Below, piece after piece: positions 4,209 through 61,893 of a stretch of DNA of 64,000 nt (the stretch's first letter is position 1; every line of letters starts with the position of its first letter). This DNA comes from Octopus vulgaris (taxonomy: Eukaryota). The notes beneath the pieces are model-generated. The model did not search any database. It was not told the origin of the DNA and saw nothing but the letters and a program-made list of their open reading frames with translations. The translations under genes and the position numbers were made by a program. The stretch lies in NCBI GenBank assembly GCA_951406725.2, contig OX597843.1, positions 17,484,001-17,548,000 of the forward strand, in the 5' to 3' direction.

Positions 4209-4875
4209 CATATATATTTTTTACCGTTTACCTTCTATGACTTGTTACAGTCATTGGATTGCAGCCATGCTGGGGCACCACCTTCAAGGTTTTCTTTAGT
4301 CGAATGAATCGAATCCGGGACTTATACATTTGTTTTAATGCCTCGTATCTTTTCTATCGGTTTCTTTTGTAAAAGCATTTATATTAACTGCGCTAATATA
4401 AATACTTTTACATACCTTTGTGTTTTGTTACTTCATATTTAAAGTTTTCTTCAAGCATATTATGGAAAATAAGCAATATAAAAGGAGATATATACTCAAA
4501 GTACCCACAGGAGGTAAAAGATATGTTAAAAAAAATTCTTTTACTTGCTTCAGTCATTAGACTGCGGCCATGCTGGAGAACTGACTCCAATACGTATTGT
4601 TTGTTTTAAGTCTGGCGCTTATTCTAAGGGTTTCTTTTGCCGAACCATTAAGTTGTGGAATTGTAAACACAACACCGGTTGTCAAACGGTGGTGGTGGTG
4701 TGAACATCAGATACAAAGACATACACACACACACACGGTCCACATTAATTTTACACTTTTTATACTCCGAGTAACAGGTTTGTTGAAATTCTGCTGCTTT
4801 TAAATAAAGCATATTACTCTACCCCTGGTATTTGAGTACTCTTTTTTCTCACCTTGTTTCACATTTATGTGTTTG

Positions 4876-12499: not shown

Positions 12500-15058
12500 T
12501 TTTTTTTTTTCTTCTTTCAAATTTGCTTCCATTTCTTGCCGAGTGTCTTCCCGACTCCTAGGGCAAAGAAACTCATAGTATACTTTGGTAGGCCATTAAA
12601 CCAAACTCAGTAGTTCGTTCATTTTTTTTAATTTTTTTTTTTTTAAAGTTAAATTAAAATACATGAGCAGCAACAGTTCTCACATCGACAATGCTCTTCT
12701 CAATACGTGTGATGTACCAGTTAAGACAATCTTTTGCACTTCTTGCAGGGATGGTAAGCCAGGGATCATTCTCATATAATTTTCGGTTCCCTTCTTGATC
12801 ATTCCTAGTGCTCCTACGATCACTGGTATTGAGATGCCACATTTTCTCAATTTCAATGAGTAGGTCTTTATATTTTCTGAGCTTGTCAAACTCTTTCGCT
12901 GAGATATTATGATCACAGGGGATGCTCATGTCGATCAATAAGCAAACTTTATTGTTTTGGTCTTTCACAACAATATCTGGTTTATTGGCCTTGATGGTTC
13001 GGTCTGTATGTACTGGAAAGTCCCACAGAATCGTTACATTTTCTCCTTCAGTTACAGCTTCAGGGTGGTGATTATACCACTTGTCGGCAGTTTTGATATT
13101 GTAATGCCGACTTATTAGCCAGTGGAGATATTGGCCAACTCTGTCATGTCTTAATTTATACTCCACTGGTGCTAATCCAGAGATTAGGTGGTCCACTGTT
13201 TCAATCATGTTGCAAAATCGGCATTTTGGGTCTGCTCCATTTTTCATCACATTGGCCTGGTAGTTCCGGGTTAATAGGCTTTGATCTTGAGCAGCCAGGA
13301 TGAAACCTTCGCTCTCTGCTTTTAGCCCTGAGCTCCGTAGCCACTGATGGGTTTGCTTCTGGTCAACATCAGCTTGTTTGCTGCGGGTCACATATTTGCC
13401 GTGCAGAGGTTTCTCCTCCCACCTATCAGCCAATTGCTCGTGCGCTTTTTTCATTGCTATCATTTTCACCTTCTTTGCAACAATAGTTGCCGTACTTCCC
13501 TCGGGTTGTTCAGTTTGGGTATCCTGCACGAGATCAATAGCAAATTTTTTGCTTTCCTTTATGATAGAATGAAGCTTCTTTCGTCTCTCGTGATTTTCCA
13601 CGAGCTTTAGCATCCAGTCATTCGATATTTCGAGATATTTGGCCAGTCCAATTGTGGTTGATTTGTAAGCTAGTTCAAATTGGATCAGGCCTCGACCTCC
13701 TTGGGCTCTGGGAAGGTAAAGGCGATCTACGTCTACCTTTGGGTGGTGCATCCTATTACAACTCAGCAGCTTGCGTATTTTTCTATCTATATTCTTTACT
13801 TCACTCATATTCCAGTTCAACACATTGTAGCTATAAGTAACAACTGGAACTGCTAAGGAATTTATAGCTAACACCTTGTTACGTGCATTTAGTTCAGATT
13901 TCAGGACTGCACGAACTCTCCTATAACATTCCTTCCTGATTTCTCTTTCATGCTTGCATGCTGAATACCAGAGCCTTCATTTATCCCTAAATATTTGTAT
14001 GTTTGTTCTTGCTCAAGCTCTCTTATGACTGTGTCAACATCTAACACGACTGAATTTGTGGTCTTCACTTTCCCTTTCTGGAAAGTGGCCTTGGCACACT
14101 TCTCAAGTCCAAACTCCATCCCGATGTCATCGCTGAATGCTTTCACGGTGCGCAATAGGCCTTCAAGTTCATTATTGTCTTTACCATAAAGTTTTAAGTC
14201 ATCCATATAAAATAGATGGCTTATTTTTTTATTGGCAATTTTATACCCATACTCTGTTCTGTTTAATTCACTTGTAAGGGGTATTAGGGCTATGCAGAAT
14301 ATTAAAGGTGAAAGTGAGTCACCTTGAAAAATTCCACAGTTGATGTTTATATTTTCTGAGGCAAGTACTCCATTAGAGTGGTATAATTGGAGATTCGTAT
14401 TCCACAACGACATATTGTGCTTCAGGAAGTTTGAAATCACAGGGGAAATTTTGAAGATGTCCAGCGATCTCAAGATCCATGGATGCGATATACTGTCGAA
14501 GGCCTTTTTGTAGTCAATCCATGCGGTGCTGAGATTTCTGCGCTTGTTGTGACAGTTCTCAAGGATCATATGATTGATTAGCAGTTGATCTTTGCATCCG
14601 TAAGAGCCTCGGCGGCACCCTTTTTGTTCAATGGGGAAAATATCGTTCTTCTCCATGAATGCATATGTTTTCTCCGCCAGGATAGATGTTAGGATTTTAT
14701 ACGTGGTGGATAGACAGGTTATAGGCCGATAGTTTTTTGGAAGGTTGGTTTCGTTATTCTTTGGGAGTAGGTAAGTAATGCCACTTGCTAACCATTCAGG
14801 TGTTTTCTTTGGGTCTCTCATAATTCCATTGAGCAGCTGAACTAGCTTACCGTGTGCGCATGGGAGCGATGCAAGCCAGAAATTCGGCACCCTATCTTTA
14901 CCGGGGGATTTCCAATTATGGGCCTTCGTGAGTGCCTTTCTTAGGTCTGCTATTGTGATGTCTTCCCATGCTTGTTGTTGTAAATTTTGGTAGGATCCTT
15001 CAGTTTGTATAATCCAGTCTGCATTTATGTTGTACGTCTTCTTGTCACTCCTTGTCAC
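12500..15058 (-). mobile_element. 5'-truncated R4/Dong-like non-LTR retrotransposon (RT plus restriction-like endonuclease), frameshifted
   Basis: RT motifs GIFQGDSLSPLIF and LFYMDDLKLY (ORF 13901-15058). Zn-knuckle remnant CRFC..ETVDHL, RHD, KPDIVV..LIDMSIP..KYKDL and PVIVGALG follow. The 3' UTR ends in (TAA)n. Frameshifts near 13930 and 12830. Confidence 0.9.
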
Positions 15059-25540: not shown

Positions 25541-25659
25541 TGTTTGTTTTTATGTTCAGTTATAATAAAAGCAGTTTAAAATTAAAATTCTGACGAAGCC
25601 TTAGCTGGCCGAAAAACTTCGAAGTTGCTATCAACAACACACTTTTATTATTTTTAAGA

Positions 25660-36224: not shown

Positions 36225-36757
36225 TTAAGCGTAACAGGAGCCCAGATGTGATGGTACGTGACCGGCCGGATTTGAAACCATGTGATTCTGGATGTTGGGG
36301 TAGATGTTAGCGGCGTTCGGTGTTGACCAATAAGAAGCCGGTGCGGCAAATAGACCGGAAGCTGCCGAGTGCGGCACACCGGAATGGGCGTTGATGAAGT
36401 TCATTTTTGAGCTCGTGTATCCAGTGAGAAAGAGGTCCTGTTGATAACGGTAGCTGGTGGGGTCGGCCGTTGACGGCTGCATGGCCTGAGCCAGACCGGC
36501 GAAGTCGAACTTGTAAGCGTAGCGTTTGCCGTGTACCTTTGTCATGATGTTCTTGTCGTAATAATAGCGAAGGGCACGGCTGAGTTTGTCGTAGTTCATG
36601 TTGGGTTTGCTCTTGCGCTCGCCCCAACGCCGGGCCACCTCGTCCGGGTCCACCAGTTTGAACTCCCCGTTCGTGCCTTCCCATGTGATGCAGCTGGCAT
36701 TGTTACTGTCTGAGAGAAGCTCCAGGAGGAATTGCCACAACTGGATTTGGCCACTTC
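36225..36757 (-). CDS. ERG: Terminal coding exon of an ERG/FLI1-family ETS transcription factor (ETS domain plus C-terminal tail)
   Basis: Translates (G)[16 protein letters not shown]...[42 protein letters not shown]...HLGSCYA*, the ERG/FLI ETS signature. Phase-1 acceptor ttttttctatattgcag ends at 36758; TAA stop at 36227-36225. The N-terminus of ORF 36225..36851 is intron read-through. Confidence 0.96.
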
Positions 36758-37824: not shown

Positions 37825-37872
37825 CTGTGTTACAAAGTCGATTCGAGATTTGCCGGAAGAATTTGTAAGGAT
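37825..37872 (-). CDS. ERG: Penultimate 48-nt coding exon of the ERG/FLI gene (DPYKFFRQISNRLCNTG)
   Basis: Flanked by ttttgttctttcttcag and gtaagg, phase 1-1, and splices in frame to GSGQIQLW. Corresponds to the vertebrate ERG/FLI1 DPYQILGPTSSRLANPG exon. Missing from the ORF track. Confidence 0.9.
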
Positions 37873-37929
37873 CTGAAGAAAGAACAAAAGAAAATAGAAT
37901 CAGATTTCATCACCTGCATGTTGTTGTTG

Positions 37930-45281: not shown

Positions 45282-45349
<68 letters not shown>

Positions 45350-45483
45350 TAGTTGAATGAATTATCCTAGTATGGATAATTCGGTTAACCGATACCCGGG
45401 CAGCAAATTTATCACTATGGACTCCGTGTGGGCTGTCATCTAAAAGTTTTTGTTCGTCATGATGCTGACATAAGTTCCTTGTC

Positions 45484-45564
45484 TTTCCTGATGAGAAGGC
45501 GGCATAATGCACCCTTTATTCCTTCGGAATTAAGAATATGCAGTCTTCGAAACATATGTCGAGA
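45484..45564 (+). ncRNA. Type I hammerhead ribozyme motif, canonical core
   Basis: Stem I UUUC/GAGA; CUGAUGA (45488-45494); stem II GAAGGC-G-GCAUA / UAUGC-A-GUCUUC; GAA; palindromic stem III ACAUAUGU; C17 at 45560 (GUC triplet). Confidence 0.85.
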
Positions 45565-45602
45565 ATAAAGGAATTTTGTTAAATCGTCGTTCGACTCCAT
45601 TC

Positions 45603-45665
<63 letters not shown>

Positions 45666-45820
45666 TAATATTCGTAGCCACGTCAACATGGCTGTCCCTT
45701 CGAACGGACTCTAGTGCGATTTTTTAACCCCAAGAGGACGTCTCCTCTAGATGGTTTACGATGCAGGGCTGCACCCGATAAATTGTGTGCAGGGGAGCGT
45801 ATCTTACCACCATCTAACAA

Positions 45821-45884
45821 CGAGGCCAGTAGACTACTCCTAGTTTCGGGCTATTTCTGCCACTCTTCGGTACTGGACACCTCG
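45821..45884 (-). ncRNA. Type I hammerhead ribozyme motif with extended bulged stem I (U4C core variant)
   Basis: Minus strand reads CGAGG-UGU-CCAGUA CCGAAGA G-U-GGC AGAAAUA GCC-C GAA ACUA GGAG UAGU C UACUGG CCUCG. All three stems pair; GUC triplet with C17 at 45832. Confidence 0.82.
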
Positions 45885-45961
45885 TCTTCTAGAGATGGCA
45901 GTAGCTCGCCTCTGCTCGCAATATATATATATATATATATACTTACTTGTTTACTTGCTTG

Positions 45962-46380: not shown

Positions 46381-47600
46381 AAGTGTATGTAAGGTATTTG
46401 AGGACATAACTGTTTTCCTAACTCTGTATAAGCTTTGTTTCAGAATATAATAATGGCAGACCCTAAGCTTACTCAAGAAATGAAGAGGCATTCTGTTACT
46501 GTGGTTATAAAGGCTGAGCATAGCAATTTAGAAATATCTCGATTTTTCAAAGTTGCCAGATCTTTCGTCTACAAAGTTTGTAAGGAGTTAAGAGACTGAA
46601 GATGAAAACGTATCACCAGTATCAAAGCATAAAAAGCATTCTAAACGCTCTGAAGTCATCAGAACACCTGAATTTATCCAGCAAGTTCAACAGACCATTG
46701 ATTACAATCTCAGAAAGTCCTTGAGGTCAATTGCGAAAGATCTTCATGTGTCAGAAGGAACAGTCAGAAATGTTGTCCACGTAGACATCAGATATAAGTC
46801 TTATATGATGAGGAAAGGTCAATTTGTCAGAAAAAGCAAAAGAAAATCACTACATCAGATGTAAAAGGCTCTTAAACAAACTGAAAAATCCAGCAGAAGA
46901 AGATTTGATTTGGTTTTTCTCAAATGAGAAAAACTTCGACCAAAATCAAAAAGTCAACAGAAGAAATGACAGACAGTTATGTGCAGACCCTTCTGAAGTA
47001 CAAGTGTTATGCATACAAAATTTCCTGCAACTGTCATGGTTTTACGAGTTGTCAGCAATGAAGGACATGTGATGCCTCCTTACTTCTTCCCACAAGGACT
47101 TAGAGTTAACTCTGCTGTCTACATTGAGATCCTGGAAATAATTGCTAAGCCCTGGATAGACGGTGTATGCAGTGGAAGGCCATATGTGTTTCAGTAAGAC
47201 TCTGCACTATCACACATGGCTCTAGTAACACAAGAATGGATGGTTGAAAGTTTTCATGATCACACAACCCCTAACATTTGGCCTCCTAATTCCCCAGATC
47301 TTAATCCATGTGGAGCATTGTTGAGAGAGAGGTCAATGAACACGCCCAAAACACCAAAGATTCTTTGAAAGCTGCTATAGCCAGAGTAATGTCCAAAATG
47401 AACCAGGACCACTTGAATCGAGCATGTAGATGATTTAGATCTCATATAGAAGCAGTTGTTGAAGCTGAAAGTGGCTTTATTGAATAACATTTTAGAAAAG
47501 AAGGTTTATTTTTATCCTCAAAGCGTTTTCTGATAAATAAAGTTATTATCTGTTATTATATAAACATAAATCTGTCCTCAAATATCTTACGCGCACCCTG

Positions 47601-50079: not shown

Positions 50080-50114
50080 GTTTAACGTTTCGAGCGGAGC
50101 TCTTCGTCGGAGAC
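50080..50114 (-). ncRNA. Second copy of the 23418 hammerhead-like motif
   Basis: Minus strand: GUCU CCGACGA A GAGC UCC GCUC GAA ACGU U AAAC, in element 49979-50178. A truncated copy lacking the motif lies at about 39907-40000. Confidence 0.55.
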
Positions 50115-60692: not shown

Positions 60693-61693
60693 GTCATCCC
60701 ATAAGTTCCGTCCGAATTTACTTTTTTTAAAAATTGAATGAAATTTAAAAGTATTTTAGAATGTCTAATGGGATTAAAAATGATTTTTATGCATTTGTCT
60801 ACATTTAAACTAATTAAATATTATTTTACAGAATAATAGAATTAAAATTTCTTTGATTAAAACCATTTCTAACATGGAAGTATCCAAAGAGCATTTAAGG
60901 CACAAAATTCTTTATGAGTACCAAAAAGTAAACTCTGCAGCCGAAGCGACTCGAAACATACACTCAGTTTATGGGAAAGAATGCTTGAATGAAAGAACTT
61001 GCAGAAGATGGTTTGCAAAATTCAGAAGTGGAGATTTCAGCCTTGAAGATGAAGATCAAACAGGACGTCCAGTTGAGTTTGATGATAAGCTCTTTGAAGC
61101 ACTACTTGAAGAAAATCCTGCATTATCAGTTGAAGCATTGGCGATAAAACTTAGTTCAAACCATACAACTGTTCATCGTCATCTTCAACAACTTGGAAAG
61201 GTTCCTAAACTTGGATAATGGGTGCCTCATGAATTGTCCGAAAGCAACAGTAAATCCCGAGTTGACATCTGCTCTTTTCTCCATTCTCACAAACTCATTT
61301 CCCCCTTTTTGGATAGACTTGTGACTGGTGACGAGAAATGGTTCTTCTATCGAAATGTTAAACGTCGTAAATAGTGGCTTGGAAAAAGGGAAAAAGCTCA
61401 ACCACAACCGAGAAGCGAACTTCATGGAAAAAAGGTTCTTCACTCAATCTGGTGGGATTGCCAAGGAATAATTCACTTTGAATTGTTACCACCTAATACA
61501 ACAATCAATACTCAAGTCTACTGCCAGCAATTGGAGCATTTGAACCAAGCTTTGAAGAAAAAAAGACCCGCTTTAGTGAATCGAAAAGAAGTGATGTTTC
61601 ATCAGGACAATGCGCGGCTCCACACTGCAAAGATCACATCACAGAAGATCGAAAAGCTTGGTTGGGAAAAAATTCCTCATCCACCTTATTCTT
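60689..61693 (+). mobile_element. mariner element, 3'-truncated transposase pseudogene
   Basis: TA-TCAGGTC left end; ATG at 60874; HTH region, WVPHEL, TGDEKW, HQDNAR and HPPYS motifs; in-frame stops at 61216 and about 61372. Confidence 0.9.
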
Positions 61694-61893
61694 CCTACTT
61701 ACTTTTTACTACTGTTTTCTATTTATTGTACTTTATTGTACTTTATTGATACTTTTTTATAGTATATGTTTTTTTTTATATGGTGTGAATAACATCTTTC
61801 TTTATTGAATTGTTTAATAGAGATTTTTCTCTAAATTATATATATGTATATATATGTATATATATATATGTATATATATGCATATATATATGT

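Follow-up and report, generated by a model that had tools for sequence, protein, structure and literature searches.

A type I hammerhead motif in a likely ERG/FLI intron of Octopus vulgaris and the dispersed 360-nt repeat to which it belongs

Retrozymes, Penelope-like elements and intronic ribozymes

Metazoan non-LTR retrozymes are non-coding repeats that carry a full type I hammerhead, have units of about 350 nt (350-390 nt in mussel and 330-350 nt in axolotl) and occur in copy numbers on the scale of thousands, with head-to-tail junctions and alongside Penelope-like elements (PMC7229834, in its available text). The octopus repeat family described here shares these traits, and its unit of 360 nt with a type I hammerhead falls within the retrozyme range of about 170-400 nt. 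By contrast to the described retrozymes, the octopus family is old (no scored pair exceeds 87% identity), consists mostly of monomers and partial tandems, and the copy under study is a 260-nt monomer with a C in place of the consensus U at core position 4 (U4C). Octopus and squid are not mentioned in the main text of PMC7229834, the supplements of which may differ, and no report of a cephalopod retrozyme was found in the literature on Penelope-like hammerheads, metazoan retrozymes and cephalopod hammerheads; supplementary tables may list such elements. Within the literature searched, the family extends retrozymes to cephalopods. By its sequence features it is classed as a non-LTR retrozyme-type element, an old family of a known kind, and as most likely read the locus matters little beyond adding one more such family.

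Retrozyme monomers have been proposed to be both derived from and mobilised by Penelope elements (Li, Clavereau and Pollet 2026, bioRxiv 10.64898/2026.07.22.740005). According to the available text of that preprint, Xenopus retrozymes occur as solo copies across chromosomes, 42-44% of them intronic. The octopus family likewise has dispersed solo copies, and the one studied here is intronic; unlike the retrozymes of the preprint, which resemble pLTRs, no matching pLTR was found for the octopus unit among the three or so Penelope families surveyed. No mollusc is named among the sampled groups in the text available, although the supplements may differ. Penelope-like elements form partial tandems, carry an inverted 5'-truncated arm and a tail at one end only, and are biased to microsatellites as targets (Craig et al. 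2021, PMC8557442, in its available part). The octopus family has these same traits, but its unit holds no ORF, its tail is 57 nt compared to 30-40 bp, and its hammerhead is full rather than minimal.

CPEB3 is an HDV-like ribozyme. Similar to CPEB3 (PMC10919898) and to the amniote intronic hammerheads of RECK, CTCL and DTNB (PMC6155905), the octopus motif is a single sense-strand ribozyme deep in a long intron, and like the amniote hammerheads it likely has a retroelement origin. In the available parts of these sources, deep conservation is the defining trait of the amniote intronic hammerheads (PMC6155905), and RECK, CTCL, DTNB and CPEB3 are conserved across mammals, birds or reptiles, whereas the octopus motif decays at the rate of its repeat family. 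The Sm-alpha hammerhead of Schistosoma is also of type I, with the architecture of a helix I-loop II contact within a repeat (PMC6155905); in the octopus motif this contact is predicted.

The hammerhead motif and its host intron

The motif was found on the minus strand at positions 45821-45884 of the window (the whole 64,000-nt stretch of DNA that was analysed) by use of sequence inspection coupled with a descriptor scan, shuffled controls and folding. Read from 45884 to 45821, it comprises a 5-bp outer stem I, a UGU bulge (45879-45877), a 6-bp inner stem I, the core CCGAAGA (C3 at 45870 and C4 at 45869), a stem II with a 7-nt loop II (AGAAAUA) and then GAAA, and a 4-bp stem III with a GGAG loop. 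A GUC with C17 at 45832 follows this order of parts, and the predicted cut site lies between 45832 and 45831 of the minus strand. The conserved core (C3 U4 G5 A6 N7 G8 A9/G12 A13 A14/A15.1-U16.1/H17) is complete except for U4C. By strict descriptor, one motif was detected in the 64,000-nt window compared to none in 300 dinucleotide shuffles (19.2 Mb). The original prediction of a full monomeric hammerhead with these parts was borne out by the minus-strand reading and the shuffles; its description had lacked both U4C and the interrupted stem II (1 bp, a 1-nt bulge and 3 bp). The hammerhead fold has three helices, with helix I open, and ties the minimum free energy (-16.0 kcal/mol); over four context windows, pair probabilities were 0.92-1.0 for stems I and II and 0.41 for stem III. 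Thus, the type I hammerhead motif is genuine and self-cleavage is predicted. The UGU bulge and the loop ending in AAAUA presumably resemble those of the Schistosoma Sm-alpha hammerhead; unlike the latter, the window copy has a U4C core and a bulged stem II.

The motif had also been described as having the architecture of a fast hammerhead. Fast cleavage is not supported, as the core carries U4C, a natural variant reported to decrease activity in vitro considerably while still allowing viroid infectivity (PMC3088659, in its available part). Whether the window copy still cuts is, by our estimate, about an even chance, and because of U4C any such cutting would be slow. For comparison, one of nine predicted retrozyme elements cleaved in the assay of the Xenopus preprint, according to its available text (bioRxiv 10.64898/2026.07.22.740005).

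The surrounding gene was modelled by homology and splice consensus rather than by spliced reads. The last coding exon of an ERG/FLI gene, which encodes the ETS domain, was placed by homology at 36225-36757 on the minus strand; its identity over the query is 100% with a protein named as the Octopus sinensis ERG homolog, and it shares 65-78% identity with other ERG/FLI proteins. A 48-nt coding exon was placed at 37825-37872 (minus strand) by tblastn and splice consensus. Beyond the window end, the next upstream exons are at about 1853-1930 and at 4232-4282 of the adjoining sequence (L031), in frame and with GT/AG ends. The host intron, as deduced from homology, thus occupies 37873-64000 of the window (minus strand) and runs 1,852 nt past its end to a donor at L031:1852, for a whole length of 27,980 nt. 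Its acceptor at 37873 is 7,959 nt downstream of the predicted cut site, which would put the cut about 20 kb downstream of the donor and 8 kb upstream of the acceptor. Since the modelled exons lie on both sides of the motif, the hammerhead is in sense within this 27,980-nt intron, and an ERG/FLI transcript most likely spans it, in agreement with the presumed ERG intron of the original prediction.

Several minor observations concern the same gene. The 48-nt exon, which lies directly downstream of the intron with the ribozyme, is absent from many short ERG proteins of molluscs and could be a cassette exon. Two further ERG/FLI-type ETS exons were found on the same contig (G000:C30:8319705 and 7847777), with 67-72% identity to a Haliotis protein. 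A SAM_PNT search gave no match on the contig of the ERG/FLI ETS exons, and a candidate split PNT-start exon was noted about 167 kb past the window end.

The 360-nt repeat family and the origin of the window copy

The motif is held in a monomer of an old, non-coding repeat (45663-45921, minus strand) that corresponds to positions 1-260 of a 360-nt unit and is 89% identical to the family majority. The 3' end of the monomer meets a (TA)27 tract (45607-45661), which is common to the neighbouring element, and its 5' side meets a (TA)n run (45922-45941), at a point where a short AT run occurs inside the unit. With the window copy as query, at least 55 matches were obtained from the 40 scored of 1,161 candidates, with a best non-self identity of 85%; a more typical copy gave at least 65 matches from the 40 scored of 1,663 candidates, with a best of 87%. 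Because there are more than 1,000 candidates and the best other copies are 85-87% alike, the family is both large and old. An exact 33-letter core pattern occurred 11 times compared to none for its control, and hundreds of family contigs were present in each of three large runs with three organism labels. Summed depth over single-copy depth was about 1,400 in run X17 and 1,200 in run X18, ratios that are in line with the candidate counts and are not copy numbers. Sampling favoured copies that resemble the queries, and an intact-core pattern served to choose 11 of the loci.

The 360-nt unit has no ORF. Head-to-tail junctions were found at 27 of 58 distinct loci (30 junctions, 329-384 nt, mode 360) and inverted arms at 24 of the 58. 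A few loci (L159 and L161) are tandems with two ribozyme copies; long tandem arrays were not seen over the 58 loci, and the locus in the window holds a single monomer. Most family hits (100 of 122) end at one of two fixed points, unit position 250-266 (24 hits) or 300-317 (76 hits, 27 of which run into the next unit), and a microsatellite follows 43 of these 100; the window copy ends at the shorter (260) of the two. Among 23 outward-facing arm pairs, 13 end at 260/317, one at 317/317 and none at 260/260, with an unclassed end in the other nine. Common variants of the family occur at tolerated positions (N7, the stem II bulge, loop III, H17 and a U-A/U-G pair). Since these variants spare the invariant core, the source elements were probably active ribozymes. 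Four short family contigs, less than 90% alike, were present in one putative-RNA contig set; contigs of this type cannot show circles. Run X1, putatively RNA, yielded no contig from the window locus, and run X15 (organism B) did not cover 45781-45825; neither gap counts as evidence.

Inverted arms at 24 of 58 loci, a tail at one end only and a microsatellite target make up the footprint of Penelope mobilisation, the traits of which are given in PMC8557442 (in its available part). Intact Penelope ORFs with reverse transcriptase (RT) and GIY-YIG domains are abundant in the genome. In a survey of three or so of its Penelope families, the 360-nt unit was absent from 49 of 50 and 36 of 37 loci and occurred only at the two family loci used to seed the searches. 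At one of the 58 repeat loci (L025/L201, the same place as L163/L164; L201:2034-4496, G000:C2), the repeat is fused to a Penelope element: a full arm on the minus strand and then a short one on the plus strand lead directly, with no microsatellite between, into a Penelope ORF remnant, the junction joining unit position 38 to mid-ORF. The remnant is an internally deleted RT/GIY-YIG element, 77-86% like a young 775-aa family, that runs to its own 3' end, and both outer ends of the locus are in TA tracts. The fusion is a candidate for a template switch by the same enzyme, with nested insertion plus deletion as the alternative. A link between retrozymes and a Penelope helper has been proposed in print and not shown; this one chimeric locus names a candidate helper family. 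A further ORF remnant, beside L058, was considered as an autonomous parent and set aside, as it is about 500 nt away behind a microsatellite.

The young Penelope family (L194-L196) has a 775-aa RT/GIY-YIG ORF with an upstream ORF of 454-499 aa, and gave well over 100 near-identical hits, with 4.27-kb tandems and inverted pairs. A pattern search of its 3' region detected no standard hammerhead; a CCGAAGA...GAAA stretch is present. Two more young Penelope-like families (L114-L131; 16,351 candidates) have intact ORFs of 720-745 aa and no adjoining standard hammerhead, and the one checked against Pfam gave no match.

Taken together, we hold with considerable confidence that the window locus is a decayed copy of a dispersed, protein-less 360-nt repeat, which a Penelope-type retrotransposon enzyme likely inserted at a TA microsatellite in a likely ERG/FLI intron, where it is likely a neutral passenger. 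The motif, the family, its 360-nt period, the two fixed 3' ends in microsatellite, the inverted arms and the decay at the family rate were established directly. By analogy with the retrozymes of coral, mussel and axolotl, tandem source copies would have been transcribed and cut to unit length by their own hammerheads, and the unit-length RNA would probably have been circularised. A Penelope-like RT/GIY-YIG enzyme may then have nicked the (TA)n tract and begun to copy the RNA at either of two positions, and at the window locus copying would have stopped after 260 nt at the internal AT run of the unit. With one ribozyme and 260 of the 360 nt, the window copy cannot release a unit-length circle.

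A second hammerhead element, which would have entered the same TA tract later, lies at 45348-45606 on the plus strand, antisense to the gene (C3 at 45488 and C17 at 45560). This element is independent and younger, with a long stem II, a palindromic stem III and (TA)n flanks; it gave 2,427 candidates, of which 40 were scored, with copies up to 99% identical. Many copies at 98-99% identity start at position 60-62, with a separate or inverted piece of positions 1-62. No DNA similarity was detected between this element and the 360-nt family. The younger element was present at none of 57 other loci of the 360-nt family, and the latter at none of 19 other loci (18 distinct) of the younger element. 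As the two families do not co-occur at the other loci sampled, the idea that the facing ribozymes act as a pair was rejected. The motif had been predicted to converge on a ribozyme at 45484 across a (TA)n tract, and both ribozymes are indeed present; no meaning of its own is supported for their convergence, as they belong to unrelated families that do not co-occur at the other loci sampled, and it reflects the TA tract as a common target.

Decay of the window copy, alternative readings and the gene

The window copy was compared with its relatives for the rate and pattern of change. Its end branch in the family tree is 0.10, compared to a family median of 0.11. Relative to the majority of 10 other C4 copies, it differs at 5 of the 64 sites within the ribozyme and at 19 of the 196 outside it (Fisher p 0.81), and over 70 copies divergence is 10.7% inside the ribozyme and 10.4% outside. 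All five changes in the ribozyme keep or improve pairing, including a compensatory double change from C-G to U-A in stem III. No sister copies with this exact stem III variant were found above background (2 matches compared to 2 for the control). Under simulated neutral decay, the core and stems are kept in 5.5-5.8% of copies, bulge and loop II are also intact in 1.8-2.5%, and the outer stem is perfected as well in 0.15-0.17%. With more than 1,000 candidates, chance alone should yield some tens of copies that retain the core, stems, bulge and loop, and about two in which the stem is perfected; since there are so many candidates and the copy was picked for looking complete, its low per-copy chance, though striking by itself, is to be expected. 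In the sample, where intact cores are over-represented, the core and stems are preserved in 8 of 70 copies and the bulge and loop II as well in 5 of 70, and locus L054 likewise has all stems paired. Thus, a perfect-looking intronic hammerhead is to be expected by chance among the repeat copies of this genome and calls for caution.

Position 4 was considered separately. U4 is found in 57 of 70 copies and in 92-93% of the depth in three runs. A private lesion was rejected as the source of U4C, given that 11 of 70 copies carry C4 and cluster on the tree; on a tree built without the ribozyme columns, from which three partial rows were left out and in which branch support is weak, C4 required 5 changes compared to a shuffled mean of 8.9 (0 of 500). 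The window copy has decayed at the family rate, C4 is a trait of a minority subfamily, and the locus is most likely an ordinary monomer.

Three other readings were weighed against this one. We give almost no credence to a chance match that was never a ribozyme: by itself the 64-mer does not fold with unusual stability (z -0.84), and Rfam found no hammerhead match for the window motif at the gathering score or at E<=5, with microsatellite noise only, nor for six loci of the 360-nt family at E<=1, but no such motif arose in 19.2 Mb of shuffles, the family majority (with U4 in 57 of 70 copies) is a canonical hammerhead, and the subfamily variants spare the invariant core. It is very unlikely that an autonomous Penelope-like element has the 360-nt unit as its pLTR, with the window copy as a 5'-truncated insertion of that element. 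Such an element would leave an equal insertion footprint, Xenopus retrozymes are placed as sister to pLTRs in the available text of the preprint (bioRxiv 10.64898/2026.07.22.740005), and one locus does join the unit to a Penelope ORF; that locus, however, joins unit position 38 to mid-ORF, and the element there has a different 3' end. At 27 of 58 loci, one unit is also followed head-to-tail by another without an ORF; the unit is missing from all the Penelope loci surveyed but the two that seeded the searches, and the window hammerhead is full whereas those of Penelope-like elements are usually minimal (PMC6155905, in its available part).

We regard as very unlikely, too, that selection later retained a mobile insertion as an intronic ribozyme whose cutting of ERG/FLI pre-mRNA competes with splicing, similarly to CPEB3 and amniote RECK. 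The sense orientation would suit this reading, as would the five changes, none of which harms the fold and some of which better it (a neutral chance of 0.15-2.5% per copy), and the 7,959 nt between the cut and the next exon, a distance close to that in mouse Cpeb3 (9,931 nt; PMC10919898); amniote intronic hammerheads have been proposed as domesticated from retroelements (PMC6155905; both sources in their available parts). The orthologous copy is present in runs X17 and X18, which bear two organism labels, differing by a single letter over 184 and 182 nt; such near-identical copies are too close to test conservation. Against selection, the substitution rate in the ribozyme is not lower than outside it (p 0.81), comparable copies are expected by chance, with this one picked for its completeness and L054 equally paired, U4C is retained, and the next 200 kb contain another four hammerhead motifs on the minus strand. 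The parallel once drawn with conserved amniote intronic hammerheads is accordingly not supported, as the motif is part of one copy, about 10% diverged, of a mobile repeat, with an equal rate of change inside and outside the ribozyme. An early domestication, in which selection kept a slow U4C ribozyme foldable so that it would cut ERG/FLI pre-mRNA within the time of transcription to the exon 8 kb on and tune output or isoforms, is highly doubtful. If true, it would be an invertebrate counterpart of CPEB3 and RECK with the parent family still readable in the genome, and would show how mobile hammerheads become gene regulators. We prefer the neutral passenger, because the motif is one worn copy of an old genome-wide repeat.

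As for the suggestion that ERG pre-mRNA could be cut co-transcriptionally, a transcript most likely spans the motif in sense, as it requires, so that the nascent RNA could be cut. Introns cut by a hammerhead were still spliced in vivo, whereas a fast HDV ribozyme blocked splicing (PMC2995048, in its available part, citing Dye 2006 and Fong 2009), and by analogy a cut by a U4C hammerhead in mid-intron would likely be tolerated. Mouse Cpeb3, with a half-life of 2-3 minutes and 9,931 nt to the next exon, can matter (PMC10919898, in its available part), and given this precedent some effect on ERG/FLI is conceivable.

Other motifs and repeats were noted in and near the window. Additional hammerhead-like cores occur at 50110, 23448, 55043 and 54042 on the minus strand and at 25590 and 34294 on the plus strand, as well as at L129 and L132, and the next 200 kb hold the four more minus-strand motifs. 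Several other hammerhead-like cores have a C at position 4, which suggests that U4C recurs in octopus elements. The window also contains what we take to be a remnant of the 3' region of a non-LTR retrotransposon (12657-13976, minus strand) and, presumably, remnants of two mariner-like transposases (60814-61746 and 46450-47070, both plus strand).
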